DNA of 60,225 nucleotides, counting the filler, from Gonapodya sp. JEL0774 (Eukaryota): the NCBI GenBank assembly GCA_027604505.1. It is 6 parts of 6 records of this genome, joined end to end, with 100 filler letters (N's around TTAATTAATTAA, not from the genome) between each part and the next. Parts side by side here need not be neighbours in the genome. Positions count along the whole stretch, not along the records: positions 20,185 to 30,143 come from JADIIX010000400.1; 5 more parts are not named here. One strand, given 5' to 3'. Numbering within the stretch: position 1 is the stretch's first letter; each line of letters opens with the position of its first letter. The position numbers were made by a program, and so were the translations under genes. Shown here one piece after another: positions 20,185 to 57,555 of the stretch. The notes beneath the pieces were generated by a model. That model was not told the DNA's origin. It saw nothing but the letters and a program-made list of their open reading frames with translations, and ran no database searches.

Positions 20185-20198
20185 TAAAGGCTCGCTTT

Positions 20199-21831
20199 AT
20201 GGACTTCGCTTACGAGGAAACTCTCTACGAGGATCACTATTTCATTTGTGTGCTTGTGCACATCTCAATCCCCGCCGCTGTCACTGCAACCAACACCCAA
20301 CCCGAAATCTACTACCCAAAGTGGGCGGCTTGCAAATGTAACAACGAGCAGGCGTTATCCATCTCTACCGATTTTCACCGAAGCCTTCAAGCAGCCGGTC
20401 TTCCGCGAAACTCACGGAATCTTCGCATTGGCTTCGTGTCGGCACACCAGCCCATTATTTACCCCTCGACAATTCCGAACACCCTCCGCGGATTAACAAC
20501 CAACGTCGCACTCGCGGGACCCAACAGCAACCTCGATTTAATTACTCCTGTATCGGCAGCGCTTATACCATTTATTGTCGACGACCAAGGCATCTTCCCA
20601 AACCTTGTTGACATTATCCTTCCAGCAAACCGATTTCCATCTTTACGAAATCTTAAGCCGTTTACTGACCCCTCACACGTGGGCGGAAATTCTCGCCCAA
20701 ACCTTCCGTGCTGGTAATGAGGAGCCTCTCAAGTTTGCGGCGAGGGCATCTATCAAGTTGATCAACGGTGGGCCAAGGGCAAAACGTGCTATTGACAAGC
20801 TGCAGGCGGATGTTTGATACCCGGTGATTGCATCTTTGGAAGATTTTTTGTATCTTTTCGTCGAAGCGGCAAGCGAGCGAACGGACGAATACGTCGCAAA
20901 ATTGAGCATGGACACGTACAGACCAGATCACTTGGCGTCGGTGGAATCACAAATTGGGGAGACAATGGATCGGATTCAAAATTGGAGAAACTGCAAACCC
21001 GAAGTGGTGAACGCCATTGCGAATCGAGAAGGAACAGCATACGACCAAATCAAGTCGGCAGTCTCGAAAGCATGGCCGTCTTCGCCCAACGCCAATATGG
21101 CCATACAAAAGCATCAATCTATTGAGGATATGTTCCAAGTCATTCGGGATCAACAGATTGCGGATCTCAATGCAAACAAAGTTACAATCGCTGATAGTGT
21201 CATCGGACTCAACGTGGTCAAGGCACCAAGTTTCCTCGCACCGGCCACACGCCCCGCCACCCCAACACCTCTTCCTTCTTTGGGTCGCACTTTTGCTCCG
21301 CCTTTCAATGATTCTTACAGTAGTCGCAACCGCAGTATGCTGGCCTTACTCGCGGATCCCCCACAGGGTCAAGCGATACCTTCCCCACCGCAGCCTCAAC
21401 CCTCAACACCCTGTTGGAACTGTGGACTTGAGGATGGGCATTGGGCAAATGATTGTAAATCAACAGTGGACATTGGCGATGCAAAGGATTTCATGCGGGT
21501 GTTTAAGTTTGCGCCTCCAAAGTGGACACCCGGCACCCCCTACCAGGCTCCCTACCATATCCGCCGCATGATTGATTGAGAATTGGCAAGGATTGCAAAT
21601 TGAGCGCAATTGTACAACAACACTCAGATGAACAGAAGGGGTCGGGGAGCACCGGCAAATAATGGAAGAAACACGGATGCGAACAGGGCAAAAGTGAGGT
21701 TCCAGAAGGATTTGTTAACGATTTATGCGGATCAGTCCAACACGGAGGGCGTGAACAATCTGACAGAGGAACAAATGGAGGATTTCATGCAGTTGGACGA
21801 TGATGACGATGAATTCAATTCTCGTGAGTAG
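20199..21831 (+). pseudogene. gag: gag of gypsy family A
   Basis: ORFs 20575-20817, 20824-21579 and 21610-21831 share one frame broken only by TGA codons; zinc knuckle CWNCGLEDGHWANDC; frameshift near 20650. Confidence 0.8.
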
Positions 21832-22341
21832 TTAATGATCAGATGTAATCCTTTTTAATCGGTGAATGCATTAAAGAAGTCGAAGTACACACACGGAAGA
21901 CCGCATGAGGTTGACGTAGTACGGTGATGCATGAGGGAAGACCCGGAATTAGCAAGTGGGCAGAGGGGCCCATGAGTGGGAGAGCCCACGAGCCAGGGGA
22001 TGGCGAACCTCACTGCCGGACCCTCATGCATGCATTGGTACGTGACCGCCTCACGGCAGATGTGAAGCGTGGGAATCTAACAATCGGAGCAAGGGATCGC
22101 TGAGGAAGCATACCCTTGGGCGCAGCGGCAGATGTGTACGGGCATGCCTGTAGCCGGACAAGTCAGGGGATGCCTGGTCTCCATCTTATTGTTATGGGAA
22201 CTACTCGGAGTGTGCTTTCTAGAAGTTATACAGGGGCTGGCCACCCTTGCATCTAGAGCACCTGCGTTGTGTACTCAAAGAGTTGCAAAGATGCGTCAAC
22301 ACATTTTGAACATTTTACTGGCCGATTTCTTTTATCGACAG
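21824..22341 (+). other. Predicted 518-nt gag-pol intron with structured RNA
   Basis: GTGAGT donor inside CGT GAG TAG; TTTCTTTTATCGACAG acceptor; both phase 1, giving an in-frame gag-pol join. Confidence 0.65.
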
Positions 22342-25300
22342 GTATTAAACGACAACGCCGCACTCAAGAAATCTGGAATTTGGCTCTCCCAGAAAAATCA
22401 CACGACGAAATTCAGGATCCCATGGATCTCTCGGTAAACAATACCACACAAAGCACCGACAGGAAAGATCAAACGGACCTATCTGAAAATAACCCCAATA
22501 ATTCAAACGATATTCATACTGATGTTTTGATCTTAGGAACGTCAAACGAATCGACTAATTCGCCGTCACATAAAGTTCTGGCATCTATGGGTCCTCGCCC
22601 TCCCCGTGAGGCCTTCCCACGTCCACCGCGATCACGCCGAATCGATTTCTTGCAATCACATGCAAATATCCAACACGAATTGGACGACATTCACTCGCTA
22701 GATGAATACACGGATATGTCTGGCTACTGGTGTGCGGCAGAAATACAGGGCAGCGTCGCAGATCTGCCACAGCAACCGATTATACAAGACTCCGGAGCAG
22801 CTCTCTCAGCAATGAGTGAACAATATTTCCGTCGCCATTTTAAGGATCGAAATCTTGAGGCTTGGGGCAATGCTGCAATCACTGTGGGCAATGGCCAGGC
22901 CACAATACCTCGCGGTCGCCTCCGCCTCAAACTAAATGTCAGCGGAAAGGAGGGTTTTCTCAGCTTCGCAGTTATCTCGGGGCTACCACATGATCTTATA
23001 GCTGGCGTTGATTTCTTACGAGTCTTCAGAGCTGTAGTGGACTATGACAAAGGTTGGATCGCGTTCCGGAATCCAGAAACTAAGGAACTCGAACGTAAAA
23101 CTAGAGTTCGAATTACAAATGGAACTAAACTTTTGCGCACCAGACAACTCGTGCTCTCAGAGAACATTCACCTCAAGGATGGTGACGGTGCTGTGGCCCA
23201 CGTACAGGACGCACTCCTCTCAACACGACGATGGGTCGGAAAAATGTGGATAACTAGGCATCGTACTTCAGCAGTGAAACATGGTATCTATGCAGCCAAC
23301 CTCGTGTATCCTATGGCACAAGGAAAAGCCAAAGCGTTCTTACAGAACTTCTCGGGCAACGACATCACTCTTAAAGCAGGTACTCCAGTAGCAGAATTTG
23401 AGCCTCATCACAGCTCGGAAGTTATCGCGCTAAAATGCGATCCGTTGGACGACTTGGACAATATCGTTAAGGAGGTTGCAAAAACTGTTGGTGCACCAAA
23501 CGCCGACAGTCCCCTTGCCCAAACACCCCTTCCAACTCGCGAACAAATTAAGGAACTCCTTGAAAAGGAAAGCGCAACTGAGATTTATTTACCAGAAAAC
23601 CCGATCGAAAATCTGGACTTCGCAAAAGCCAACGGCATCACAATGCAACAATGCAATTTCTTAACGCGATTCATGCACGACCGATACCGCGATGTGTTCT
23701 CTCAAGGATCGATTCCGGGAACAATCAAAGGGGTGACACACAAAATTGACACTGGCACGCACCCACCAATCGCAATACCGCCCCGCCGCACCGCACATAA
23801 AGAGATTGGAATAATCTGCGAACATGTCAAAACAATGCTAGCTGATCATATAATACAACCGTCCTCTCCCCCTTGGGCAGCTCCGGTTGTACTAGCACCT
23901 AAGAAGGACTGGAAGATACGATTCTGTGTGGATTACCGCAGATTAAATGCGATAACCGTGAAAGATAGATATCCCCTACCTCAAATCGACACCGCCCTTG
24001 ATTCTCTACAGGGAGCGAGATTTGTGTCGACTCTTGATGTAACGTGGAGTTACTGGAACGTCCCAATCGATCCTGCCGACGTACCCAAAACGGCGTTGCT
24101 GACGCCTGACGGACTGTTGGAATTCATACGAATACCATTCGGATTGACAAACGCCCTGGCAGCATGACAACGATTAATGGATGCAATTCTGGCTGGCGTT
24201 AAGTGGATAAGTTGTCTTGTTTACATGGATGACATCATAGTATTTTCTCCAACATTCGAGCAACACGTGCTGGATATCGCAGCAGTTTTCAATCGTGTTC
24301 GAGACGCTGGATTAAAACTCCGTGCTGCAAAATGCACTTTCTGTCAAGTGGAAACTGAGTACTTGGGGCACTTGGTCACCAACGATGGACAGATTAAGAT
24401 GGACCCCAAGAAAGTCGAAGCTATTAGGCGCTACCTGATCCCAAAGAACGTCAACGAGCTCTATTCATTCTTGGGACACGCTGGATATTATCGGCATTTC
24501 ATCGAGAAATTCGCTGACATATCATGGTTACTTTGGCAACAAACACGCAAAACCGCCACATGGCAATGGGATAAGTCCCACAACGATGCATTCAACAAAC
24601 TCAAAGACGCTCTAACTTCAAACCCTGTCTTGAGAAGGGCCGACTTCAATGGAAAATTTATCGTTCAAACTGATGCATCTGGTGCCGCCATCTCTGGCGT
24701 TCTAACTCAAAAGAACGACAACGGCAAGGAATACGTGGTCGCGTACACCAGCAGCAGTCTCACTGATTCTGAACAGAAGTGGGACGTAAGGGAACGTGAA
24801 GCATTGGCAATAATTTGGGCTTGCGAATCATTCAGGGCGTATGTTTACAGCGTACCATTCGAGGTCCAACCAGACCACAAATCACTGGAATGGCTCAAAA
24901 ATACAACAAGCTATGGACGATTAGGAAGATGGGTCTTACGATTGGCAGAATTCAACTTCGAGCTTAAATACCGACCCCGACATCTCAACCAAAACACGGA
25001 CGCTTTCACCCACGTCCCTCAACCTGTACCCGCGACCGAAGCCGATCTCGACCCTCACCCTATCTATCTTATCCAGAATTTCCCATCGAATTTGTTATTC
25101 TTATCGCCAACTCAATTGCCGGAGCAAACATTCCAACAGTTATCGCCGTTACTCACCGCTCTCAACATCGCCCCTCTTTCGTATGAAAGAGATCTCGCAG
25201 ATCCCACTTACACCGAAGCCTTTGCACAAGCACAACGCTCAGATCCATTTTACGGTCCGATTTACAAATATCTCGCTACAACACCACCTCCAGCTAATAC

Positions 25301-25772
25301 ACCGACACGTATTGTTAAATTGGCCAAACACCACGAGCTCATGCAACCTCAAGGCCTACTCATACATAAATCTTCTATCGCAATCAACAAAGTTTTCCAC
25401 GATGTCAAACAACTTTGCGTTCCGAGGACAAGGGTCGAAGATGTTCTTTGCATGAGTCACAAAGACCTGACAGCAGGACACGTCGGAATGAACAGGATGT
25501 GGAATCTTTTACGACAGCGATTTTATTGGAAGAAAATGTCACGCGATTGCAGACGATGGGTCAATGGATGTCTTACGTGTCAAAGCAGAAAACTGCCGAA
25601 ACCAACAAACCCAGTGCACCTACACGCACACAACATGGACGACTACCAACCCTTTGATCACATCGCAATGGATATAATCGGGCGATTCCCAACAATGGGA
25701 AGGGGAAATGTATATCTACTAATTCTCGTATGCATCTTCACACAATGGGCTGAGGCCATCCCTATCCCTGAC
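22342..25772 (+). pseudogene. pol: pol of gypsy family A (protease, dUTPase-like linker, RT, RNase H, partial integrase)
   Basis: IIQDSGAALSAMSE (PR), RFCVDYRRLN, YMDDIIVFS (RT), TDASGAAISGVL (RH), H..GHVG..CLTCQ (IN Zn finger), IAMDIIG. Confidence 0.93.
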
Positions 25773-28700
25773 TTTATCAGTATGTTTATTAACGTGGTGA
25801 ACTCCACAGCAAAGTTGTGCGGCCATTACAGGGTTGTTAGATGAGTCCCTTGCGTGCTACGGCCTGTTGTGCAGGCGCTAATTCTAGGTAGGGGCCCCCC
25901 TGCCCAATAATTCACCGAAACTCCGAAAACCGCCAAGAAAGTTCCCCCACACTCCCACGAATTCCCGCTGTGCCCCCGGGCTCCTTCACCTCCAGAAGCC
26001 TGTCTCCGTCCGCGTCTGCCTTCGACACCACGTCTCGATGCGGTCGATCCATTCCACCACCTCATCCACCGCCGCCAGGTCCAAGATATCCCTACTGGTG
26101 ATCCAGTTGATCACCACATCCAGCCGTGTGACTCCAAAACGATCCGCCGGGGGGATGGATGCGACGAAAGGTAGGAGCTCTGTGTTGACTCCGGTGCACT
26201 TGAGGGCGTGCACTCTGCCGAGGTCTGCCCCGCACACCTTGCATGGGTGAGGGTGGTTGGCGGTTGTCCCGAGTTGCCAGCGAGTGAGGGAGACGCGCTG
26301 GGGGCGAGTGATTGGGGATGCCGAAGTGAGGTAGGCGCGGGGGCAAAGATCCGGAGCGAGCGGGATAGAGGCCTCGACAGCCCCCTCAACAACCGCACAG
26401 TTCAGGTGATTGTAGTGGTGCCTTTGGCGTTGAGCTTTGGGTAGCGGGGGTGGTGCTACGGAGGGGTTTACGCGGGTGAGTGGGGTGGTCGCATGATCCA
26501 TTAGACTCGCCCGATTTGCAGTCGTCCATGGGTTCCCGTTGACTTTGAACCTCAGCAGTAATACTGGGACGGGGGTTCCAGTCCATTGGATGGGCTTGCG
26601 CGGGATGTTGGAGTTGAGCGCATTCCTGTACACGCGAATTCCGATGACATCGGCGTGGGTGCTGTTGTGGAAACGACAAGTTCCCAGGAAGTCAATCTCG
26701 CGGTACCAGGACTCCACAAGGGGAATACCTGTGATGCGGTGGAGGGCTACGATTGAAGTATTGGGGGGGGCGGAGCAGATTAGTCGCAGGGCGACGTTCT
26801 GCGCCTTCTGGTACTTCGCCATCGAATCCCGACTCGGCAACTTCAAGTCCAATCCATATTCCCACACAGGCCGCACAAAGGCCTTGTAGATACGCGCTGC
26901 TGCGGCTGGAACCCAGCCCGTGACGTTCATTCCGCGTGCCTGAAGAGAGTGTGCGGTGTTGATTGCCCTCTTGCACTGCTTCACGCACATGCCTGCCCAG
27001 TCAATTCCCCGCACCGTGAACGGGTACCCCAAGCACGTAAAACCGTCCACAGACTCCAGATCAATGTCGTAGAGTGTGAGACGCGCCTGCCGCCAGTGTT
27101 TGGGAGGTGCGAAGAGTTCGCACTTGGTGGGCGAGAAGCGCATCCCCGCCGTCTGTGACCACTCTTCCGCGACCCCCAATTGCCTCGCCAACACCTCGTC
27201 CGACCTTGCCACAAGTGCCCCGTTGTCCACGAAGAAGAGTGCAACGATTCGCACACAGTGCACGGTAAGTCCCGTCCCGTCCAATTCCAACAGCAGGCTG
27301 ATGAGCTCGTCGATGAAAAAGTTGAACACGACGGGGGAAAGCGATGAACCCTGCATCAGACCACGAAGGTTGTTGAGGGGGTTGCTGCGGGATCCATTCA
27401 CGACGAGCTGGGAAATGCATGAGTCGAACAAATCGCGAAGGCGCGCAATGGTACGTGCCGGCATACGAAACCTCTCCCGGAGGATCCCCCATAGTCTCCG
27501 CCTGTCCACCAGATTGTATGCTGCTTGGAGATTGAGGAAAGCGACCCGGGCGGTGGTGTTTGCGATGAGGGTCTCGTGGAGTGCGAGCGCCTGGTGTGCA
27601 GTCCCCCGCTCGGGTCGAAATCCCCCCTGTGCATCCGAGAGGTGGGAGGTGAATCTGTTAACGTCCGCCAGGAGTAGGCGCTCGTAGAGACGCCGCCCGG
27701 TGCACGTGAGCGAGATTGGGCGGTAGGTGGAGATGTCCCGTACGTCCCCCTTCTTCTTCCATATCGGCACCACCAAGGCCGTCCTCCATTCGGTTGGTAT
27801 GCACTCCACCGCCGCCACCATCCTCAGAAAAGGTACGAGAGCGTTTATGAGTGGTTCCCCGCCGTGTTTGAGGAACTCGGCGGGGACGACGTCCGTCCCC
27901 CACGCCTTCCCCGCTGGCAATTCCCGCAACTTCTCGGTCACCGTGTCCAGCGTGATGAGCGTGTCCACCGCGATCTCCGGGCTGAGCTGATCCTCCTCAA
28001 GAGTGGGGGGGATGAGTTCCCCCGTAGGTGTCCCGCCAAACGTCGTCCGAAAGTGCTGGACGTGATCATTGATGCGCTTGGGGTCAAGTCCACATCCCCC
28101 GCCTGACTCCCGCTTCCGCGCCCCCTTCACCATCCGCATGAATGCCCCGGAGTTTTGAGGCAGTCCCAGGTCGTCCACGGCCTTGTGGAACATGGTCGAT
28201 TTCCGCTCCGCAAGGTGAGTGCGGTACACCTTGTACCGACCGGTCAAAGTCCTCCCCTCGATCCGTGCCTGCAAACTACCTCCACGCCCACGATCTATGG
28301 TGTCTTGGTGTTGTTCCGTGGCCAATATAAGGGCCTCGCGCTCACTTTCCAGCTCCTCAGTCCAGAAGTCTCGAGGTGGGTCCGCGCCCACCTGTAACCA
28401 CCCAACGGACTCGCCAGCCGCCCGAAAAAGAACCCCCTTCAGCTCTCCCCAAACCACGTCCACCTCCTCTTGGAGCTGGACGTGCCCAAGAGGAGTCACC
28501 GCATGTCGTGCCCGTGTCTCCACCGACCTCGCCGCTACTGTGCGTAAACCATCATCCCCCGCGACCAACTCCCCGTATCTCACCGCGACCTTTGGTTTCG
28601 CCAGCCTCCGCACGTTCCACCTGTCGAAGGCTCTCTCTGGCTTGTCGTCCCGCACCGAGAAAACGAGTGGTCGATGAGTTGACCCCCCGAGCGAGTTGTT

Positions 28701-29937
28701 TTCGAGAACCTTGTAGTCGTAGACTGCTCGGTTGGAAAAGACATGGTCAACCACCGAGCGACCTTCCCGCATGTACGAAGTCCATGTCCCCTGCTCTGGG
28801 ACCTGTCGCACCCACTCCGTGTCCTCCACTCGGGACTCGAGCACCCTCCCTCGCCCATTCCCCGTATGGTCACCCTCCCCCCCTCCCCAACCCACTACCC
28901 TGGCGTTGAAGTCACCCACCACATACACAGGCTTCCTCCCTTCGTCCGTGTACTTGTCTGCCATGTCCATCAGTGCTCCCACTGTATGGTCGTGTGCTGG
29001 TCCCGGTGGTAGGTACGCACTCACAAACACCACCCCATTCACCTCCACCACCACCGCCGACTTATCCGCCGCCGTCTCCAGAACCTGTCCCTTATTGTGG
29101 TACTCTGGTGTGATGGGCGCCACCAGAATACCTCCAATTGCTCGCCGTCCCCCCCGTATCGCTCCGTCATTGGGTATGATTACGTTGGTATAATGCCGTC
29201 TCAGTGGAACCGTGCTCGACGTCCCCAGCCACGTTTCCACCAGTATCACAATGTCCACTCCCTCCTCCTGCGCCGTTTTTGTCACCTCATTGACCTTCCC
29301 CGTAAGGCCGGTGACATTCGCGTATAAGACCCTCATACTGCCGCAACCGGCCCCGCGGTGGCTGCAGCATCATCTCCTGTACTCACAGTACCACTGTGGT
29401 GGTCCCTCCTGCCCTCACCTGCTGTAGGTAGATGTGGGGCGGCAATTCCGCTCCTCGCCCCGTCCCCCCCACCGTGTTCTGTCCATTATGACGTCTCCAT
29501 CACGCGAGTCCCGTTCACTTGGTACTGGGGACTGATTTCCCGAGTGACGCGTGGCTGTTGCTGGATCGATTTCCATTTCGACCCATGCATGCATGTATGG
29601 TGCGGTGATCACCCCCTTGTGAATCCGCTGCTGGCGCCGCGTACCACCTTCCCACATGTCCCAGCTGTGCTGTGGGCTCCTTCAACGCCTGCTGGTATGC
29701 CTCCAATGTGGCCCTCTGTAACTCATCTGGTGCGCCGGCAAGCACCTCCTCATGCAAGTTCTGCGACGCATTCGACCTGCAAATTCCCGCAAGACGAACT
29801 TGGTCCACCTCGTTGGTTGTCGTTGTTGCTATTCGCGCGTTCCTTACCTTTACTCATATCGAGCAGTGATTTTAAATTTGCCAGTCGTTTCCTCTTTCCC
29901 GTCAGTTGTTTCTTGTGGGTCAGCATGGTCGTGCAGC
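25773..29937 (-). mobile_element. Non-LTR retrotransposon (LINE, APE-RT type) with decayed, 5'-truncated ORF1 and 3' UTR
   Basis: ORF2 with APE and RT; AATAAA near 25785-25790 on the minus strand just before the junction with the gypsy integrase. Confidence 0.9.
25986..29336 (-). CDS. LINE ORF2: AP endonuclease + reverse transcriptase + C-terminal Cys/His motif; open but catalytically mutated
   Basis: 1116 aa: ANVTGL, LVETW, VVGDFNAR, VVDHVF; YRPISL, QGGFRP, GLMQGSSLSPVVFNFFID, FFVDN at the YADD position; CKVC..HALKC. Confidence 0.92.
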   Translation of the reverse strand: MRVLYANVTGLTGKVNEVTKTAQEEGVDIVILVETWLGTSSTVPLRRHYTNVIIPNDGAIRGGRRAIGGILVAPITPEYHNKGQVLETAADKSAVVVEVNGVVFVSAYLPPGPAHDHTVGALMDMADKYTDEGRKPVYVVGDFNARVVGWGGGEGDHTGNGRGRVLESRVEDTEWVRQVPEQGTWTSYMREGRSVVDHVFSNRAVYDYKVLENNSLGGSTHRPLVFSVRDDKPERAFDRWNVRRLAKPKVAVRYGELVAGDDGLRTVAARSVETRARHAVTPLGHVQLQEEVDVVWGELKGVLFRAAGESVGWLQVGADPPRDFWTEELESEREALILATEQHQDTIDRGRGGSLQARIEGRTLTGRYKVYRTHLAERKSTMFHKAVDDLGLPQNSGAFMRMVKGARKRESGGGCGLDPKRINDHVQHFRTTFGGTPTGELIPPTLEEDQLSPEIAVDTLITLDTVTEKLRELPAGKAWGTDVVPAEFLKHGGEPLINALVPFLRMVAAVECIPTEWRTALVVPIWKKKGDVRDISTYRPISLTCTGRRLYERLLLADVNRFTSHLSDAQGGFRPERGTAHQALALHETLIANTTARVAFLNLQAAYNLVDRRRLWGILRERFRMPARTIARLRDLFDSCISQLVVNGSRSNPLNNLRGLMQGSSLSPVVFNFFIDELISLLLELDGTGLTVHCVRIVALFFVDNGALVARSDEVLARQLGVAEEWSQTAGMRFSPTKCELFAPPKHWRQARLTLYDIDLESVDGFTCLGYPFTVRGIDWAGMCVKQCKRAINTAHSLQARGMNVTGWVPAAAARIYKAFVRPVWEYGLDLKLPSRDSMAKYQKAQNVALRLICSAPPNTSIVALHRITGIPLVESWYREIDFLGTCRFHNSTHADVIGIRVYRNALNSNIPRKPIQWTGTPVPVLLLRFKVNGNPWTTANRASLMDHATTPLTRVNPSVAPPPLPKAQRQRHHYNHLNCAVVEGAVEASIPLAPDLCPRAYLTSASPITRPQRVSLTRWQLGTTANHPHPCKVCGADLGRVHALKCTGVNTELLPFVASIPPADRFGVTRLDVVINWITSRDILDLAAVDEVVEWIDRIETWCRRQTRTETGFWR

Positions 29938-30143
29938 TGTTCACTCATTGCTGAAAGAGCTGCTCCGGAGTCTTGTATAATCAGTTGCTGTGGCAGATCT
30001 GCGACGCTGCCTTGTACTTCTGCCGCACACCAGTAGCCAGACATATCCGTGTATTCATCGAGCGAGTGAATGTCGTCCAATCCGTGTTGAGTATTTGCAT
30101 GTAATTCCAGGAAATCGACTCGGCATGATCGCGGTGGACGTGG
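29938..30143 (-). mobile_element. Second, oppositely oriented copy of gypsy family A (206-bp protease-start fragment)
   Basis: Near-identical reverse complement of 22617-22822 (DDIHSLDEYTDMSGYWCAAE..IIQDSGAALSAMSEQ). Confidence 0.93.
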
Positions 30144-30243: not shown

Positions 30244-30318
30244 TTATTATGTGGTGCTAGTTGTGCCTTATATACATGTGTAGGCTGTGGTCATGTGCGA
30301 GGTGTCAATACCACAACA
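30244..30318 (-). repeat. Partial LTR of gypsy family B (third copy, cut by contig edge)
   Basis: Matches the distal ~75 bp of the LTRs at 31608-31779 and 39148-39317, ending in ...ACAACA. Confidence 0.92.
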
Positions 30319-31607
30319 CCATGGACTTATCCTCTAGTGTGGCACGTTGAATACCTGTAATGATGTCAGTCAGAAGCCATGCATAGGAACCATTAGCATC
30401 AAACATCGGTGAAAATCCAGTGGTTGAGTGCAACCACACATTGTATGTGAATTGGATTGGATGGAGATGTTTATCCCAGTCTGTCTGGCTTTGTGTGGAT
30501 ACTTGTGCATACAAAGCGTCAACCATTGGTTTCATAAAACACTCGGCATAAGGATTACCCACAGTGTGACCTGGTGTTGTGAAGATATGGCAGAATCACA
30601 CTTCTTTTGCTAGTAGTTCCATCACAGCATTGGCAAATGCCAATCCATTATCAGAATGGATTCAAATGGGGATTCCCCAGCAGTAGATCCAGTTGTTGAG
30701 CATCCCAAATGCTGTTGCAGCAGCTGATGTGTTGGGAACTGAAATAAGTTCTGCAACACAATAAAACTTATCCATAATAACTAAGATATGTATATTGCCA
30801 TCAACAGTTTTGGGGAAAGGCTCGGAGTGGTTGAGACATACGTTGTCCCATGGCTAAGCAGAGCTGAAGTCAAAAGGCTCCATTTTGCCGCGATGTGCAG
30901 GACAATTGGGCTTATGGCTTTGGCACGTTGGGCATTTGTTATGAGTGTAATCACATACATCACAAGCCATGTGGTACCAATAGAAGTTTCCCACCATGTG
31001 TTTCAATATGATGGTGGAACCAACATGACCAGCAACGGGATTGTTGTGGAAAATGGGGAGTACTTTTCTTTGTCTTGCAAATGGTACAACAATCTGGGTT
31101 GGGCCATCAGTCACTTTTAAAACTATTCAGTGGTGGTTCTCAGTGTTTGTTTTTGGCTCCCATGTGTGGATATAATTGCGCACAAGCAATCCTTGCTCTA
31201 TAGCCATACTTTTAGCTTGCTATGCAGCTTCCTTAAATACCTTTGTAATTAGCTCAGCAGTTGTTGCTGTTAGTTCTATTACAGTGAGGATGTGAGCAAG
31301 CTCAGGGTCACTTTGTTTGTCTGCAGCCCACTGTTGGCAGTATGCCTGAGGGGACCAGGAAGAGGAAGTGAAAGCTTCAGAGGCTTTATTACAAAGAGAG
31401 CTGACTACATGGATGACAATAAGCACCAGTGGAGTGGGTACTGTCATGTATTTTTGTGTATAACTCTCGTGGCAAATCCTTATATCGTGGATCACTACTG
31501 TCATGCTGATCCTCATATGCAGGGATACTAGCGTCTACCATAAATGCCTCTTCTGGTGCATTGTTGATGCACAACAGGGTGTCAACATTAACTTGAGTTG
31601 AACCCAG
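30319..31607 (-). mobile_element. Older related gypsy element, integrase half (host of nested insertions)
   Basis: FHNNPVAGHVG..FYWYHMACDV..CPTCQ, IHSDNG, MVDALYAQVSTQSQTDW; colinear with but diverged from 31913-33540; many stops. Confidence 0.85.
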
Positions 31608-31779
31608 TGTAGTGGGGCTGTCACTACGTATTGGTCTCAGCCCTCTATGATGGGATGGTGGCCTAGTGATAGGCCTGGAGTGTGAGGTGATGTGAAGTGT
31701 GATCTTATTTTGTGGTGCTAGTTGTGCCTTATATACATGTGTAGGCTGTGGTCATGTGCAAGGTGTCAATACCGCAACA
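31608..31779 (-). repeat. 3' LTR of family B element
   Basis: TGTAGTGGGG...CCGCAACA on +; about 10 differences from the 5' LTR by eye. Confidence 0.95.
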
Positions 31780-31794
31780 CCCCCTGCTCTTCTT
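31780..31794 (-). promoter_or_regulatory. Polypurine tract
   Basis: AAGAAGAGCAGGGGG on minus strand directly abutting the 3' LTR. Confidence 0.85.
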
Positions 31795-31912
31795 AAGCAG
31801 ACAACCTCAGATGCAAAATTGCGATAGCAGAGGGAAAAAATGAAAAAATCTCTGGCGTACATTGTGTACATCGAACTCTTATGTAGAACAAATAAACTCC
31901 AGAGAAATTACT

Positions 31913-34900
31913 TCAGAGACTGTGTGTAATGAGATTGCCTCGCCATGCATCGTTTTTTTTTTTTCGTAGCCCTTTTATGTGTGCACGTATTACATTTCCA
32001 GTGCGGAAGTGCTCGAGTTTGTATGTGACCTCAGTCAATTTTCCAATGACTCTATATGGGCCACTCCATCGGGAAAAAAACTTTGTACTTTCACCTTTGC
32101 GATGGGCTTCCTCATTGTAAACCATAACAGTTGAATTGATATCAAATGTTAAGTTGATGTGTGTTTTGTTGAATTTCAGCTTTCGAACTTGAGCGGACTT
32201 TTGGAATCGATCACGGGGTTCTTCATAGATATGCGCCATATATTCGGACATGGGCATGTTTTCATCACTTGGATCATTTGGATCATTTGGATCGACAGCT
32301 ACTCCTGTGATGATGTCTGTTGGTATACGTGGTTTGTGCCCTGTTGCAGTAAACATTGGTGCAAACCCAGTTGTTGAGTGCACACGGATGTTATACGCAC
32401 ATTGAATAGGTGGTAAATAACTTATCCAATTGTTTTGAGATTTGGTTGAAATTTGCGCGTATAACGCGTCAACCATTGGTCACGTGAAACGTTCGGCGTA
32501 AGGGATTCCTTGTGGATGACCTGGTGACGTGAATGTATGTCGGAAACGCAGCATTGCGGCTAGTTCCTTCATTACATCATTCGCAAATGCTGTTCCATTA
32601 TCGGAATGGATGCGAATGAGAATTCCCCAACGGTAAATCCAGTTGTTCAGCAATGCATGTGCCATTTCCAGTGCCGATGTGTATTTTACTGGTACAAGTT
32701 GAACAATTCCAGTGAACATGTCTATGATGACCAGAATATGCGTGAAACCTTCCGCTGTTGTGGAAAAGGTCCAGCGTGGTCAAGACATAAATCGTCCCAG
32801 GGTTGTGCAGCACTGAAGTCGAATGGCCTCAGGAGCCCCTGTCGATTTGTCTTTGTTGGGTTTTGACTTTGGCATGTTAAACATTTATTGTGTACATATG
32901 ATCGTACATCATGTGCCATGCAGTACCAATAGAATTTTCCTGCCATTGCTTTAAGCATGGCAGTGGATCCGGCATGTGATCCGGTAGGGTCATTATGATG
33001 CATACACAGAATCTCTTCTCTTCAAGCAGCTGGAACCACTTTTTGAGTTGGTCCATTTACCGCTTTTGAGATTATAGTGCATCGCTGACTGTTTGCGGTG
33101 GTTGTCCATGAACGAATTATGGTTCAAACAAGGAGACCATTTTCAATTGCCATTACAGAAGCGTGTCAAGGAGCTTCTTTGTAAGCAGCCATAATTAATT
33201 CCGCAGGTGTTGCAGTTTTTTCTATGACTGCAAAACTCTGGCAAGATCGGGGTCAGATCTTTGGTCTGCTGCCCACTGTTCGCGATAAACTTGTGCTGAC
33301 CACGAAACCGTGGCAAAAGCATTGGATGCTTCATTTGTAAGCGCATTAACAACATCAATGACATTGATGGTCGTGACTGTCATGTATGAACAAGAATCAC
33401 ACTCTGTCATTTCTGCGTCTTGTGCGACATTCTCATTGAAACATTGATCACCATATGTCGGAACTTCAGGGTCAATTTGGCCCATTGTTTTACTGCTATT
33501 TTCCATTCTGAATAATGCATTGACATTTAATTGTGTTGAGCTGGGTCAGTAACGCGGAGTGTGATCAAATTTGGCTAAACGAATTGCCCACCGAGCGATT
33601 TTACCTTTACTCGCTGGATTGTTTAAGAATTTCAGTGACTCATGGTCTGACTGTAATTCAAATGTAGCGCCAAGAATGTGGTGTTGGAAGAACTCACATC
33701 CCCAGATGGCGGCGTAGGCCTCGCGTTCGGAAGTATCCCACTTTTGTTCAGCCGCTGTAAACTTTTTACTGCCGTATCCCACTACACAAGGTTGCCTGTT
33801 TTCATCGAGTTGTTTGAGAACTGCGCCTAGAGCAATGCCTAAAGCGTCAGGTGTGACAATGAACGGCTTGCTATAGTTGGGTCCACGTAGTACACCACCA
33901 GATAGCATGCATGCTTTGAGTTTCTCAAATGATTCGATAGCTTCTGGGCCAAACACAGGCTTTAGCTGTGACAACAGATTCGTCAAAGGTGCCGCAGTTT
34001 GTGCGTACCCTTCAATGAAATGCCGATAATGACTGGTAAGCCCCAAGAACCGTTGTAGTTCCTTGAGTGTCTTTGGCATTACAGAAGTACTAATGGCCTC
34101 CAACTTTTTGGGGTCCATTTTGATGAGTCCACTGGCCGTAATTATGTGACCAAGGTAAGGAGTCTCATCTCAATAGAAGTTGCATTTTGGAGCACATAGC
34201 TTTAGATTTGCACTTCGGAGTCTAGAGAATAGTAAATTTAAATGCTTTAAATGGTTTTTAAATGTATTGGAGTAGACAAGTATGTCGTCCATAGAAACCA
34301 ATAAACATTCCCAATTTAGACCGCGCAGCACGTCGTCCATAAGACGTTGAAACGTGGCGGGAGCATTTGTGAGACCAAACGGCATCCTTACAAAATGGTA
34401 AAGGCCTGTATGTGTTCGGAATGCGGTCTTTTCACGATCGCTGGGTTTTATTGGTATGTTCCAATATCGCCAAGTGATATCGAGAGCCGAATAGTATTTA
34501 GCGTGCTCTGTAGCGGCTAGTAAATCATCTATTCTCAGCAAAGGATACTTGTCCTTCTTTGTTGCCGCATTGAGTTTTCGATAGTTGACGCAAATGCGGA
34601 GTTTACTTTCCTTGTTCGGCACCGTGACTACTGGAAACGCCCAAGCACTCATTGAGGGCTCGATAATACTATCACGTAACATTTTCTGTTCATGTTCGGC
34701 AATTGCGTTTCTGTCTTGTGGACTGCCATGGTAACGTGGTACCACGATTGGTTTCAAGTTGCCTATGATTCTAAGCATGGAAGCATTACAGCTATTATGA
34801 ACCAGTGTTGACATTTTGTCACTTCCAGGTTGCATGGTAAGTATTTTGTAATCCTGGCGGATTATAGGTTCAAAGTATGCAACTCGAGTTCCTTTAGGGA

Positions 34901-35978
34901 CCGAGGCTGGTGCACCGGAGTAATTCTCCAATATGAATTCGGTGGTACCGTTTTTCATATCGCACAATGAGTTTGGTACGACAAGTTTGTGTCGTTCACT
35001 TGTGATTGGATGATACTTGGCAATGCCAGACACATTGGCAAGTTCGGTGCGCTGGTCTGTTCGAATCGGCATAGCACGAACAATTTTCCGTTCGCCCTTC
35101 TCGAGTTCGTAAGACTCAGCTGTAACCATTACAACAATGTTTGTTGGATGAGTTACAGTAGACATTTCTTTCTTGAAATGTATTGGTGGTGAATAGTGTT
35201 TAAGGTGAACCGTTGCACCATTCATGGGGAATGGAAGCGAATTTTCGGCCCAGTTTGATGGAGATACCCTGTTCCCAAAACCATATTGTAGGGGAGTCTG
35301 TCCAATATATGGAACACATGATGGACCTTCCTGTGACCGTGTATGCTAATTGGTAGTTGTATCCGATCGTGTGGTTTGACCATGCGACTGTCTCCAATTC
35401 ATATATGGAATCAGGATGACTGGCTGGTCGTTTGTATCTTTCTTCTTTATGAAAGTACTTAGAGTATGCGTCGTTACTTATCGCCGAGATCGATGCGCCT
35501 GTATCTGGTAATGCGTCGAGTATGATTCCGTGCAAATTGTATGCAAGGATCAATTTGTACTTCAACTAGGCCTATTTGGGCCTCTGACTTGATGTCAGGG
35601 TGCTCCTTGCCACTCAATTTGAAGTTTTGACAGGTGTTCTTAATGTTGATGAGATTTGCACCAGTTGCAGCAAGCATTCGCCTTTTTGGCAGGGGTTGTG
35701 TATCTCTTGTTGCTTGCTCATCCACAATTTGCCTGCTTGAGGGCGACACAATTGGTGTCAGTGGCTGACTTTGAGCAGCTGTGTCACATACTGCAGTATG
35801 TAATGGTGTAGGTATTGGCGTGGGCGCTGCCACAGTCAACTTTCGAGTGTGCCGTCCACAAACGGTTGATGAATACCAGGGTAAATAACCCCCCAACCTC
35901 GAACCTGTGCTACGCACCTGAGGAGGGCTCTGTCCTTGCTCAGTTGGGCTCGTCGAATTGGTTGAACTTTGATGTGTA
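31913..35978 (-). pseudogene. pol: pol of family B (PR, dUTPase-like linker, RT, RH, IN), multiple stops and frameshifts
   Basis: ALPDTGASISAIS, LRICVNYRKLN, MPFGLTNAPATFQRLMD, SMDD in place of YMDD, TPDALGIALGAVL, H..SH..CLTCQ, IHSDNGTAF, RWSGPYRV. Confidence 0.92.
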
Positions 35979-37142
35979 CTAGTGCATTCAAAATGTAAAA
36001 CGACATAGTATTAGCTCTATGAATCCTGTTGAAAAAATTCGCAATCATGGGAACACGTTCACGGGTCCGTCCGCCAGGCACTGCATAGGACAACCATCTG
36101 CGTGGCAAGTGAGTCTACTACGGCTCTGCTTGTTGTTCCACCATTAGCCGCCTGCTATGCGTGACATCTGGAGCTTCCCAAAACCACAATAACGTATTAT
36201 TGTCATCACCTGCCAGCTGGTCTTGCCTAGCTGTTGCCATGCCCTTAGCCGCACCGTTCAATGCGTGGTGCCCGGGGGCAATCTGCAGGAAATGTATGTT
36301 ATGCATTTCAAGCTTAATACCCTTGGAGCGTGTCTGCAGGTTAAGTGCATTCCTGCATTGTGACACTTAGTATTGTCTGCGAGCCCACCTTTGTGGCACT
36401 GGCTCCTCTTATGGATATGAGCAAATACAATGCTTGAGCATTGAAGAATATATAAAATATGATTTGGGTATGTAAGTTGTCAGTGAGTTTTGCGAACGTT
36501 TTGGGTGGAGACTGCGGTGTGGCACAGATGTTGGTGCACACCCTCCACCAACGGTCCAATTTGCAGACTCCCCTGGAGCCCAGACTGTGGGGGATTTTCA
36601 GGAAACGTTCGAGACATTGGGAAGATGTCATGTTTAAATTTTGGAGGTGTTAGGACACCTTTCTGGATTTTAGTGAATTATTCTTCTGTTCAGCACACAG
36701 GCTGAGACACACTTCACCCCCACATGACTTATTAGTAGTTTGAACAGTGGATGACAACTTTTTTGTCGAATTGTGATTTATCAACTCATTGGGCCGGGCA
36801 TGATCAGATGAGCGTTGCGTGAATTGGCACCCAACTTTTTGAATACGGCAGTAGCATGTCGTGCACAATTTTTTTTGCGAAATGTATAAATTGCACGTTA
36901 CTGGTTTCACCGTTAAGAAATGAGTTGATGCAAGTCAAAGCCGGGTCGCAATGTGTGATTTGATCTGATCCTGTGGACCAGGATTTGTGAATACTCCGAC
37001 CAGCTTTTCGCTGACTCTCATACGGGTTGTGCTTCCCACATTATACCGATTATAGTTGATAAAGTATTGTGTAGTATTATAGCATCTGCGCTATTACAGG
37101 TTTTTGGTAGACATACTCCATTTCGTAATACCATCTACTTAC
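35979..37142 (-). other. Predicted 1164-nt gag-pol intron of family B
   Basis: GTAAGT donor overlapping AAG TAA; GCTAAT branch-like motif then TTTTACATTTTGAATGCACTAG acceptor; phase 2 at both ends. Confidence 0.55.
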
Positions 37143-38602
37143 TTCGAACCAGACTCTTTAGATCGTTTGAAATTTTTCCAGCTAGTCCGGCATTTTGCCG
37201 CGCTGTGTCCACCCTTGCCGCATCGCTCGCAAGTTTCGGTGGCGCGTGTCTCCCTATCACGCGGTTGAGCCCGGTTGGTGGAGCTTGACCGGCCATTTGA
37301 TTTGTTGGCGCGCCAAGTCCCTTGACCATTACGACTGTTGTATGGTGTGAAGCGTTTCGCAGAGCCGCTGTCACTGTCTTGTGACGAGTCGGAGCGTTGG
37401 CGCTTGTTGCCATTGCCATTGGTCGTATTGTCCGCCCCTTTCGACCTAGCGTTATGCATCGGTGTATCAGGTTTAGGCGCAAGTGTTCGGGCGAAGACTC
37501 TCCAGTCTTCGAGTGTTTCGAGTCGCCTACTGTTAAGCTCAGCGATACGATAACATTCGGCACTGTTAGTAGGACCGATGATATGCAAGAATGCCGATAC
37601 TACCGCGTGTGTTAGTACTTCACGGCTTGGTTCAGCTCGGTTGTACTGGGGAGTCCAGTACCGTAGCTTGACGCCGTGCCAGTGTTCAAGCTGGCTGAGT
37701 ACGTCTGCGGCGGCCATTGGTTGACCTTCGGCGTCGACTGGCCAGTTGCCGCGCACCATGGCGTTCTCGAAGTAACGCATGAGTGCCGGAGTTGCGCAAT
37801 GTGCCATGACCCAATGGAGCATATCGTCCAATGTAACGGGTCTTGATGGGCGGTCGACATAGTGTTGCGGCGGTGGGATGTTCTTGTTGAACTTGCCCCT
37901 TAGTGCCGTCGGTAGACATTCGATGATGACTGATACGATGTCAGTATCCTGGATGTCGGGCTTGAGTCTTCGAATTGTATCGATGATCTCATTGAGCGAT
38001 TCCATAGAGTCGGTCATGCTAATGACATGCTGCTTCGGATCGAACTTGTTCTTCAAGATGTTTCCGAGCGGCATTAAAGACCCCGCCGAGTTTGATTGCA
38101 GGTTCTGGACCTGATCCGGCGTATTAGAATGACTTAAAGTGTTTTCAGTCGACAGTGACCTAACCTGCTCGATGTACACATTGAGTGTAGTTGGAGATTT
38201 GTTCTTCGCGAGCGCCTTCGCCAACTCCCGTTTAGCTTTGGCCATCGGCGTTTCAGCCGTAGACTTCTGAGCCGTGTTGACTTGCAACGTTGGGGGAGGT
38301 TGTTTGCGAATTTTCGGTAGTGCACTGGTGCCACTTGTGGCGGCACTGGTAGATGCGACTTGCGATGCGGCTGTTTGAGCCGTCTTAGGGTCCCCGACGA
38401 TTTCGTTGGAATCGACGTTTGTGGGATCTACGGTGTCGTTTGACAGCGTTGGTTGTGGTCGCTTCCGGCGCACTGCCTGTGTAACTGTGCGGCGGTCAAC
38501 TTTGACTGATGGCGTACCTTCGGGTTGCTTATCCGACATTTCGACAGTGATTTGTTTCGATATGATTTTGTGAATTGATTGCAGTGTTTGACTGTCTAAC
38601 AA
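37139..38602 (-). CDS. gag: Gag of family B, uninterrupted ORF
   Basis: 487-aa ORF downstream of 5' LTR/PBS with C-terminal zinc knuckle CERCGKGGHSAAKC; first ATG gives MSDKQPEG. Confidence 0.88.
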   Translation of the reverse strand: MLDSQTLQSIHKIISKQITVEMSDKQPEGTPSVKVDRRTVTQAVRRKRPQPTLSNDTVDPTNVDSNEIVGDPKTAQTAASQVASTSAATSGTSALPKIRKQPPPTLQVNTAQKSTAETPMAKAKRELAKALAKNKSPTTLNVYIEQVRSLSTENTLSHSNTPDQVQNLQSNSAGSLMPLGNILKNKFDPKQHVISMTDSMESLNEIIDTIRRLKPDIQDTDIVSVIIECLPTALRGKFNKNIPPPQHYVDRPSRPVTLDDMLHWVMAHCATPALMRYFENAMVRGNWPVDAEGQPMAAADVLSQLEHWHGVKLRYWTPQYNRAEPSREVLTHAVVSAFLHIIGPTNSAECYRIAELNSRRLETLEDWRVFARTLAPKPDTPMHNARSKGADNTTNGNGNKRQRSDSSQDSDSGSAKRFTPYNSRNGQGTWRANKSNGRSSSTNRAQPRDRETRATETCERCGKGGHSAAKCRTSWKNFKRSKESGSK

Positions 38603-39130
38603 TCAAATTGTGAAATGAAGATTTGTTTGTGAAGGTGTTCTGTTATGATGATCACAGGGGCGAAGAGTTTCTTCCCCTCTCTGCCTGTGAATAACAAGAA
38701 CAACACCTTATGCAATTCACAATTCGATTTCAAATTTGTACAGCTCTTTTGAACTTTTGTTCAGCGTTTTTGAGTCTGTTTTTGTGACGGAGTCGTGGTA
38801 CATCACTCGGTGATTAAACGATTTTACGAGTTCAAGCGACTCGATCACTTGGATATGGCTTTAAAACTATTACATATAACAACAATGGCTGTTTGCAGTC
38901 GTTTTTTTCGATGGAAAGGCAGTACGTTGCTGACTTCTGTCTTTTTGACGTTTTTGGTAACTTGAGTGATTGCAACATCTTCTGAGAGTCTATGATCCTC
39001 AATGGGGGTTTATTTTGACAGGAAAACGTCTTGTGACGTTGTGCTTTGCTTTACACTATAGTGTATGAGTCTTTGACAGCTTTTTGCTGCTTTTTGTGAC
39101 TCTTTTTGGTTTGTCTCTGGACCAAGAACA

Positions 39131-39144
39131 CGGTTGTCCCCCCA
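39131..39144 (-). promoter_or_regulatory. Primer binding site, probably tRNA-Pro
   Basis: TGGGGGGACAACCG 3 nt downstream of the 5' LTR; a TGGGGG start resembles known tRNA-Pro PBSs; tRNA identity not verifiable here. Confidence 0.65.
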
Positions 39145-39147
39145 AAC

Positions 39148-39317
39148 TGTAGTGGGGCTGTCAATACGTATCAGTCTCAGCTCTCTATGACGGGATGGTG
39201 GCCTAGTGATAGGCCTGGAGTGTGAGATGATGTGAAGTGTGATCTTATTATGTGGTGCTAGTTGTGCCTTATATACATGTGTAGGCTGTGGTCATGCATG
39301 GTGTCCATACCACAACA
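39148..39317 (-). repeat. 5' LTR of family B element
   Basis: TGTAGTGGGG...CCACAACA on +; direct repeat of 31608-31779. Confidence 0.95.
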
Positions 39318-39780
39318 CCGGTTGGTAGCAGACAGTTAGCTGTTTTCAGACAACTTAATGATCCATCTGGCTAATTTACTGGCGCTAGTATGGTTTGATA
39401 AAATTGTAATGACTTGTGATCAGTTTTGGAGTTCAAACTTGATGCGAGCAGTGTGGTGGCAGAAGAATTCACAACCCAGATCGCTGCATACGCCTCTCTT
39501 TTAGAAGTGTCCCACTTCTGTTCAGGTTTTGTAAACTTTTTACTGTCGTATTCAAGAACATACCGTCTGCCTTAATCATCAAGTCGCTTGAGGATGACGC
39601 CAAGGGTAACTCCAGTATCGCGTTTTTTTACACCCCCCATGCAACTGACTACCCCCACCCTGTGAAAAGGTACCCCCATCATCAAATCTAGAGCAGAGTT
39701 AATGTATTTTATGATGACAACTATAATAAATCTGTAAAACTGCTATGGCTAAATCCTACCCTGTCATATGACAAGTTGAG
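39318..39780 (-). mobile_element. Older related gypsy element, RNase H half (continues at 31607); distal boundary approximate
   Basis: Minus-strand DTGVTLGVILKRLDD, EQKWDTSKREAYAAIWVV, ARWIIKLSE, reading on across the insertion into YQPGSTQVNVDTL. Confidence 0.8.
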
Positions 39781-40299: not shown

Positions 40300-41450
40300 G
40301 GGGGCATGTACGCCCACGTCCCTGGTCTGTCGCCTTCTGTTGTTTCAAAGTTTCCAACTTTAGCAGACCCGAAGTCGGCAAGTCGAGGTGTCATTGCCTG
40401 GTCCATTAGCACATTCAACGGTTTTAGATCAGCGTGAACCACCTCATTTCTGTGGAGATGCTGCATTCCTCGAGCAATCCCTAACAACTGCACATAACAC
40501 GGTTAGCAATTGACACTACAAATCATAGAAGGTGTTCAAGGCTTACCAGTCGAATCTTGTCAACGTTCGGCGATGTCCGGATGTACCGGGAGCAATCTCC
40601 ATTGCGTAAGAAGGGTGAAGCAGTGAAGAAACAAACACGCTCCATGCCATCCCAGGACCACGTTGTGACTCCAGCGCCGAACAATGGACAAACGTTCCGG
40701 TGGTCCTTGAGTTTCCACCAAGTGTCCACTTCATGAACGAACGCTTTACGATGCTCCTCAATACTGGGATTCAATACTTGGGGCTTAAAAATCTTGATAG
40801 CAACTCGCGGAATGCCCCTGAGCTCGCCCTGAAAGACATGGCTACTGTATCCATCCCCGACAAAGTTCTTGGGAAGTTTGATTGAAGTGTGACTTGTCCA
40901 CCACGGGTAATCACGGAACAGATCCTCGAAGACATCGATTCGCTCCCCCGTCATGTTCTCTCTTCTCGATTGCTCGACAGTCGGGATCGGAGTGACGACT
41001 TAGTCCATTATGTGAGCCAGCCTCAGGCCAACACTCGCCGCCAAAATGTGAGTTCACGAACGTCTAAATATATTGCCATTAATATGTCACAACTGTGAAA
41101 TAAGACTTGAAATTGAAGTGGTTAGTGGTCACGAAAGGGAAATGTCAATAATCAGTCGGTCGGAGACCACATTGAGGTTACGTTTTGGTTGTCACACCAG
41201 ATAATGTGATTGTCTTGAATATCAATGACTTGATATGAAAGTGTACGCGCAATGATTCATGATATATAAAAAGTGTTCGGAGCTATTGACAACAAGGGAC
41301 AGAATTGCTGACCGTTCTGCCTTGCCAATGTGTATGATCCGATACGTCTCCAAACCCTCAAGGTCCGAAGCTCTTCAAGCAAGTCATCCAGTTCATCGCC
41401 TTGGCTGACTAGTGTTTTCGCAACCGTCGCTGCTTGACTTTGCAGGTGGT
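40300..41450 (-). CDS. Protein kinase, TKL-like, multi-exon, 3' partial; start uncertain
   Basis: [63 protein letters not shown]; intron near 40490-40545. Confidence 0.88.
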
Positions 41451-56300: not shown

Positions 56301-57555
56301 CCGCCGGACATTGAGACTGGAAGTGACCAGTCTTACCGCACATGTAACACTTACGAACTTCACCCGGCGTCGTCGATCTAGGACGCTCAGGCTCTGATCG
56401 TGCTTGATTGGCATTTACTGTGTTATTGTTTGAGCGAACATTCATGTTCGGTGCTGTTTGACTTTGAGTAGGCCTAGCTGTTGCCTGTTTGTTGTTGTTG
56501 ACATCAGACACGAACATGACTTGTCCTCCTTCGACAATCTTGACTTTAGAAGAATAGTTTGCGACTAATGCCAACTTGATCAGGTTAATAGATCGAAGAT
56601 CCGCCTCGGGATCAACAGACACAAGTGCAGCGTTGACAAGGTCCAGATAACAACCCTTCATCTCTTCGAACGACGGCATCTTCTTCTCCGGGACTTTCTT
56701 CTCAGAAGCGCTAGGCTTCAAAACCGCTGCGACTCTCGGGTTAATCTCCTTGAGATCTCCACATGCCTCACGTATAACCCCAAAGAAATCGACAAGAGGC
56801 AATTTCTCGATCGACATTCCAAATGTCTTTGCCCTCATCATTGCCCTTAATTGTTCCTCGCGATCAAGGGCTCCGAGGATCTGCAACTTCACGCTTAATC
56901 TTGTCATCACCTCGTCCGTGATCAACTTGTGTGCTTTACGACCGACTTCATCAAACCATTCCTTCAACGAAGCTGCTCGATCCCTCCTTTTTAGCAGTTC
57001 ATTCCACTCATTCATCAGCTCTTCCGGAGTCTTCTCCTTCCTTATGAACATGTTCCGGAGGTCATATTTCAGACTGCTCCAATCACACTCCTTATACGAC
57101 TCCTTCAACAAGATCTTCGGTAACAACACAGCCTGATCTCTTGGATCAATACTCTGGATCAGCATTGACACTTTGAATCCATCCGGGTACCCCTTCTACC
57201 ACTTCTCATATGCATCGACCCAAGCGTCAAAGTGCACCATTTCCTTGGTCAATTTCCAGCCAAAAGCTTGCAACATCACATGCGTGTAGTCCATCTCTTT
57301 CTCCGCTCTTAACGGTGCACCTGCGTGCGTGGACGATCTCTCTTGATCAAATCATCTTCCTTGTACGAACCCTCTTCAAGACTTCTCAGCGACTTAAACA
57401 ACTCATCTTGTTCCGTTTGTGCCTCGACTCTTGCTTTCATGTTTTGATCCATTGGTTCAGAGTTTGTTTTTGAAAGGTGACTTTATAGCGAGTTTGGAGA
57501 CGAGAAAAGACCAGAGAAGCAAAGAGAATCGTTGGTGTGGATGTTCTCCTGCGCT

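Follow-up and report, generated by a model that had tools for sequence, protein, structure and literature searches.

LTR retrotransposons make more Gag than Pol by several routes, which include frameshifting, readthrough, a spliced RNA that encodes Gag only, degradation of Pol, and the intron of the Ogre elements. Ogre elements are plant Ty3/gypsy retrotransposons of the Tat lineage, present in pea and Medicago, in which two polyprotein ORFs are parted by a non-coding intron, whose removal from some transcripts gives the whole polyprotein (PMC6317226). In Arabidopsis Gypsy elements, no conserved splicing was seen according to the accessible text of PMC5580714. Among fungal Ty3/gypsy elements, Tyl3 of Yarrowia lipolytica has a gag-pol spacer of 324 bp that contains stops, and the accessible portion of PMC5014426 reports that neither an intron nor an IRES was found in it; Tca2 has a single stop (PMC7175516 and PMC3441728, each in its accessible portion). 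Two surveys of fungal LTR elements show no comparable case when searched by term: PMC3248453 mentions neither 'intron' nor 'splic', and PMC2864245 uses 'intron' for organelle introns only, although its supplements list element structures that may be relevant. The passages covered of PMC6875170, PMC6431247 and bioRxiv 2022.06.16.496473 describe no such element. A fungal Gypsy element with a gag-pol intron was not found in the literature searched, a scope that excluded most subscription papers, Repbase, GyDB and supplements, and that covered its sources in part.

The stretch of DNA analysed here (the window, 60,225 nucleotides) is made of six assembly pieces of ~10 kb each with N-linkers between them, and the element of main interest, element A, lies in the piece at 20185-30143. 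Feature coordinates are collected in Table 1. Element A has the domain order gag-PR-RT-RH-IN, which is the Ty3/Gypsy order, as judged from Pfam and from alignment A1; its pol matches RVT_1, RT_RNaseH, Integrase_H2C2 and, weakly, gag-asp_proteas, and the same alignment backs the assignment. The gag zinc knuckle at ~21409-21462 matches zf-CCHC with E=0.0026, which is under the curated Pfam cut-off, and the probable 5′ part of gag (20187-20717) gave no Pfam match. LTRs are not visible, as the 5′-end is an assembly break and the 3′-end is cut by a LINE. The copy is dead, with three stops in gag, a stop at 24165 in pol, and an integrase truncated by that LINE. The LINE, which is probably young, is flanked by truncated element A on one side and by an inverted piece of a second family-A copy on the other.

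Table 1. Positions of elements A and B and of the neighbouring LINE, counted along the window
Feature	Position	Strand	Details
Probable 5′ part of gag A	20187-20717	+	176 open codons from the assembly-piece edge; frame differs from the remaining gag; putatively gag
gag A, decayed	20680-21831	+	Stops at 20815, 21577 and 21601; acidic tail; own stop TAG 21829-21831
Predicted 5′ splice site A	21824-21829	+	GTGAGT; phase 1; overlaps gag stop
Predicted intron A	21824-22341	+	518 nt; stops in every frame; 16 ATGs
Predicted 3′ splice site A	22326-22341	+	Pyrimidine tract and CAG; next base G; phase 1
Linker A	22342-22778	+	Open, in pol frame ahead of protease; frame opens at 22257; first in-frame ATG 22422
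pol A	22779-25770	+	Protease IIQDSG at 22779; RT signature DVTWSYWN; stop 24165; RNase H; integrase zinc domain; cut near 25770
LINE ORF	25986-29369	-	Endonuclease and RT; unbroken, 1127 codons; after the cut end of element A
Second family-A copy, fragment	29938-30143	-	Protease region; 206 nt, 93.7%; junction outside the fragment; family A is otherwise limited to element A in the window
Family B Gypsy, full-length	31608-39319	-	Same clade as A; LTRs 39148-39319 and 31608-31781, 93.1% alike
gag B	37139-38539	-	466 aa, unbroken; stop TAA 37141-37139
Predicted 5′ splice site B	37137-37142	-	GTAAGT; phase 2; gag stop at positions +2 to +4
Predicted intron B	35979-37142	-	1164 nt; branch-like GCTAAT 36015-36010; pyrimidine stretch; CTAG ending at 35979, phase 2 into linker frame
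Linker of pol B	35511-35978	-	Open from acceptor to protease region; first in-frame ATG 101 codons past acceptor

The initial annotation of this DNA placed a consensus donor, GTGAGT, inside the last codons of gag in element A, and it is indeed there, with its GT at 21824 in the context CTC/GTGAGTAG (the slash marks the predicted splice point) and the gag stop TAG at 21829-21831. The proposed non-coding spacer of about 500 nt with a terminal pyrimidine tract and CAG also holds: TTTCTTTTATCGACAG ends at 22341, which gives a length of 518 nt. Donor and acceptor are both phase 1, in agreement with the original claim, and the join enters the pol frame, where no stop interrupts the 146 codons up to and through the protease motif. 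The accompanying statement that the pol frame has no ATG until well inside was too strong. An ATG at 22422, in the context CCC ATG G, lies upstream of protease, 27 codons past the acceptor and ~119 codons ahead of the protease motif. Of the 23 YAG sites between the donor and protease, the acceptor at 22341 is the most pyrimidine-rich and the only one that scores at least 0.65; no canonical CTRAY branch point was found within 42 nt of it. Stops in the spacer number 11, 6 and 6 per 172 codons in the three frames, whereas the same copy has a single stop in the 1139 codons of pol and three in the 383 of gag. With a density so far above that of the element's own ORFs, the spacer is non-coding rather than decayed coding sequence. 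No notable repeat or fold was detected in it (fold z = -0.98). On these grounds a structured spacer was rejected; frameshifting or readthrough across the spacer was rejected on the stops in all three frames, and an inserted repeat on the absence from the window of terminal repeats or a second copy of the spacers.

A second element of the same clade, family B, is full-length and flanked by LTRs of ~170 nt of the TG...CA type. Its gag is Gag-like by Atlas features (the look-alikes carry zf-CCHC, Retrotrans_gag or PNMA), with no match in a Pfam search, and ends AA/G TAA GT. The pol frame opens 10 codons before the acceptor at 35979. Three YAG sites tie at 0.65 in this element, of which 35979 and 35733 are in phase, the latter further down, and 36026 is out of phase. 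One frameshift parts the linker from protease in the decayed copy, and the phase match in B assumes that the linker frame is the true frame across it; the likeness of the linker end to L007 just ahead of protease supports this. Other features of B include the stretch TGGGGGGACAACCG, two bases past the 5′ LTR (39147-39132, minus strand), which resembles a primer site, perhaps one for tRNA-Pro, and a purine tract that precedes the 3′ LTR (31781-31806, minus strand). The flanks CCGG and CTGG could be a 4-nt target duplication with one change. Further decayed B-like pieces lie on the same strand as nested insertions: part of an LTR with integrase remains at 30244-31600 and, next to the 5′ LTR of B, a fragment of RNase H at 39320-39600.

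The third element, L007, is on a metagenome contig that spans gag (with a CCHC motif), spacer and pol. Its gag ends AC/G TGA GT, which places the predicted donor in phase 2, and the predicted spacer is 829 nt long. None of the other YAG sites, 48 in all, is as rich in pyrimidines as the acceptor at 2070, which enters the pol ORF in phase 2; this ORF opens 11 codons before the acceptor, has an in-frame ATG 21 codons past it, and reaches protease after 184 codons. A canonical CTRAY branch point was not found in L007, and is present in only one of the three elements, namely B. Over positions 1-2500 of L007 the observed/expected ratio of CpG is 0.26 in pol, a strong depletion, and 1.21 in gag, a contrast that suggests methylation-driven decay of part of the element only.

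The layout and its phase match are observed in three elements of one RT clade. The initial annotation had asked whether GT, AG and phase are conserved in relatives while the spacer drifts, and this is the case in both of the other junction-spanning elements, where spacer lengths differ; the three spacers have stops in every frame and no similarity to one another. A GTRAGT motif overlaps the gag stop in all three, beginning at -5, -1 and -1 relative to the stop in A, B and L007, respectively. The motif occurs once in A (5616-nt sense strand), once in L007 (4059 nt) and twice in B (7712 nt), so that the copy at the gag stop is 1 of 1, 1 of 1 and 1 of 2. In the background, GTRAGT starts 5 nt or less before a stop triplet in 6 of 556 cases in the elements (the real cases included) and in 83 of 3933 in the window, or 1-2%. 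For B and L007, which were not used to form the idea, the probability of a donor on the stop by chance is about 1e-4 to 4e-4, a figure to be read with n = 3 and with the nearer kinship of these two elements (60% RT identity), which makes the tests not fully independent. The YAG site with the top pyrimidine tract (of 23 in A, 44 in B, where it is tied, and 48 in L007) is in phase in each case, 28, 10 and 11 codons past the opening of the pol frame, and in each element just one in-phase YAG falls no more than 30 codons from that opening. The acceptors of B and L007 were first chosen by eye and the pyrimidine score was fixed afterwards, so the acceptor ranking counts for less. Phase is 1 in A and 2 in B and L007, with donor and acceptor in agreement every time. 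In family C, L005 and L008, which do not belong to the clade, gag ends without a GTRAGT donor. Family C, a third Gypsy family in the window (50567-57195, minus strand) that served as a control, has a layout of the frameshift type, with gag overlapping pol in another frame, and has a long insert between protease and RT.

Elements A, B and L007 group with L016, P0001 and P0005 in one clade (FastTree 0.999 over 127 rows; SH-aLRT 100 over 37 rows, midpoint root), in trees that took in neither a copia outgroup, an Ogre reference nor named reference elements; L004 and L005 fall outside it. An unusual RT motif, D[VI]TW[GSR]YWN, is common to A, B, P0001/P0121 and P0005/P0125. P0001/P0121 is 66% identical to A, RT-RH identity between A and B is 46%, and RT identity among A, B and L007 is 46-60%. 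The best 120 relatives listed all have RT-RH of the Ty3/Gypsy kind, most followed by integrase domains. The best RT relatives are metagenome proteins, and the only named relative in the clade is P0160, a protease of Gonapodya sp. JEL0774, which is 39% identical over the protease-linker region and is one of 150 matches listed, found through its A-type protease; the other listed matches are mostly generic RT. Four proteins of the clade extend back past the beginning of protease (P0001, P0121, P0125 and P0160); they start 37-77 residues before it with no Gag or CCHC upstream, but these Gag-less starts are weak evidence because gene callers choose starts. P0121 and P0125 end in a segment that was judged chromodomain-like by eye, and also carry a long insert between protease and RT; element A is truncated ahead of the corresponding region.

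A motif scan of metagenome contigs returned 10 loci, of which two are clade members (L007, with the junction, and L009, a short RT fragment), three are other Gypsy elements (L008, L013 and L014), and five are unrelated. The same scan gave three loci in viral contigs, none of them a retroelement by tblastn, and a single locus in genome contigs, L016, a clade member with RT-RH only. L016 (1-1667) comes from a short contig that was binned with a bacterial genome, Candidatus Kerfeldbacteria, and is probably eukaryotic contamination. Scans for close relatives in metagenome and viral contigs, and a protease-linker query against longer proteins, had no match, and an exact look-up of seven element proteins found none in the protein collection. 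Counts over the junction refer to A, B and L007; L009, L016 and the protein-only relatives do not span it and were left out. The host genes in the window (Mannosyl_trans3, MSC domain) look fungal, a search for homologues of host genes gave no match, and P0160 makes a Monoblepharidomycete host likely. A heuristic scan of the window for host introns gave six candidates, and with just one of them beyond doubt a splice model of the host could not be built. This intron, in a kinase-like gene, is 59 nt long (40488-40546, minus strand) and reads GTAAGC ... GCTAAC ... CAG; the predicted introns of the elements are 9-20 times longer.

We conclude that this Ty3/Gypsy lineage probably has a regulated intron as its gag-pol spacer, with unspliced RNA serving for Gag and as genome and spliced RNA for Gag-Pol. 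The initial annotation drew the same picture from element A, and comparison with B and L007 supports it at the level of sequence. Full-length RNA would retain the intron, terminate translation at the gag stop, yield Gag and serve as the genome, and a minority of transcripts would be spliced, lose the stop and encode Gag-linker-PR-RT-RH-IN. The role that frameshifting or readthrough has elsewhere, that of fixing the Gag:Gag-Pol ratio, would fall to splicing efficiency, which may be kept low by the length of the introns (518-1164 nt) and by weak branch points. All three copies are decayed, and we infer the state of an active copy from them. None of the three junction-spanning copies is without the spacer, so spliced RNA may be poorly copied and would then be disfavoured as template; alternatively, selection may remove intronless copies, whose sole product would be Gag-Pol. 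A broader version of the proposal is more tentative, and we regard it as possible but somewhat doubtful. It would hold that an undescribed Monoblepharidomycete Ty3/Gypsy clade (RT D[VI]TWGYWN, in trees without named reference elements) has a clade-wide fourth control of Gag:Pol in which the gag stop is written into the 5′ splice site and the spliceosome alone decides, that intron phase has changed yet the intron has stayed functional, and that the intron is kept since spliced RNA is excluded from particles, as would happen if the intron carried a packaging signal.

The strongest rival is that Pol is made separately from Gag, through an internal promoter, an IRES or re-initiation in the spacer, with translation beginning at the earliest ATG of the pol frame, which in A is 22422. 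This ATG has a good context and lies upstream of protease, no out-of-frame ATG stands between the acceptor and the first in-frame ATG in A or L007, and a start 27 (A) or 21 (L007) codons past the acceptor could give the whole of Pol without Gag. There is also precedent, as an internal start was proposed for Tca2 and left open for Tyl3, where no intron was found in the 324-bp spacer (PMC5014426, available portion). Nevertheless, an internal start does not account for the consensus donor that overlaps the gag stop in three of three elements, and the position of the first ATG varies. The first ATG of the pol frame is preceded by 55 (A), 111 (B) and 32 (L007) open codons, which exceeds what an internal start predicts (combined p 2e-4, a value due mainly to B), and two out-of-frame ATGs lie ahead of the first in-frame one in B. 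The spacer of A, with 16 ATGs and an ordinary fold, also speaks against it, and we consider an internal start improbable.

Still less probable is a foamy-like arrangement, with a genuine acceptor that is spliced to a 5′ leader donor to give a Pol-only mRNA. Foamy viruses make Pol by such splicing (PMC7828637, in the part available), element A has a usable ATG past the acceptor, and the leaders of A and L007 are missing from the sequence and could harbour the donor. In B, however, which has a complete LTR and leader, none of the donor-like hexamers tested for occurs ahead of the gag-stop donor, and the match in phase between acceptor and gag-stop donor in three of three elements would be left without an explanation; we judge this route very unlikely. 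Slightly below it we place a copia-like use of the gag-stop donor with a far downstream acceptor, giving a short Gag-only RNA, with pol expressed by some other route. Splicing close to the end of gag does produce a Gag-only RNA in Copia, EVADE and BARE (PMC5580714 and PMC12786077, in their accessible text), but gag here has its own stop, the nearest strong acceptor is in phase and at the head of pol in three of three elements, and such splicing gives pol no route. Least likely of all are chance motifs in dead copies, the spacer being inserted DNA or the remains of a coding sequence: GT and AG occur often, the copies are decayed, the sample is small and the acceptor score was set post hoc, but the chance odds of the donor in the two test elements are those given above, stop density in the spacer of A is at the level of non-coding DNA and far over that of the same copy's ORFs, and neither terminal repeats nor second spacer copies occur in the window.

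With regard to known systems, the initial annotation cited foamy viruses as a parallel, and this did not survive: in foamy viruses splicing is needed for pol, and Pol comes from a subgenomic RNA without Gag (PMC7828637, accessible part), whereas here a Gag-Pol fusion is predicted, so that Ogre is the true parallel. Splicing near the end of gag sets Gag:Pol in the Ty1/copia elements copia, EVADE and BARE1 (PMC5580714 and PMC12786077, as far as their text was available), and this is shared; their logic is reversed, with spliced RNA encoding Gag only and unspliced RNA Gag-Pol. Tyl3, as described in the available text, shares a stop-containing gag-pol spacer but differs in that splice signals recur here in three elements. 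The plant Ty1/copia element Bianca, with two ORFs ~172 bp apart (PMC6317226, in the part accessible), shares the layout and belongs to another superfamily. The arrangement is one to look for in other unexplained gag-pol spacers, such as those of Tyl3 and Bianca. If true, it would be the exact splicing equivalent of retroviral readthrough, and would raise the puzzle of an element copied from RNA that keeps an intron which must sometimes be removed.

The likeness to the Ogre mechanism lies in a spacer with stops that is bounded by a consensus donor and an acceptor of the same phase, in three of three elements. The Ogre intron is between GAG-PROT and RT, with a mean of 274 bp, and unspliced RNA gives Gag-protease (PMC6317226, available portion), whereas the predicted introns here are between Gag and protease and are 518-1164 nt long. 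Protease and RT of element A are in one frame and the spacer precedes protease, so the position of the Ogre intron is not matched, and the donor that overlaps the gag stop is a feature of the present elements, unlike Ogre. Ogre elements have a plant Tat-lineage RT, an extra ORF and very long LTRs; here the LTRs of B are ~170 nt, and the relatives are metagenome proteins and a Gonapodya protease. The hosts of Ogre are plants; the host here is probably a fungus, and the relatives P0121 and P0125 have, by eye, chromodomain-like ends. Splicing is shown for Ogre and predicted here. An intron between Gag and protease, its donor fused to the gag stop, would if confirmed mean that the Ogre logic arose a second time, independently, outside the plant kingdom. 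From its sequence, the lineage of A, B and L007 appears to work like Ogre, and is not an Ogre.
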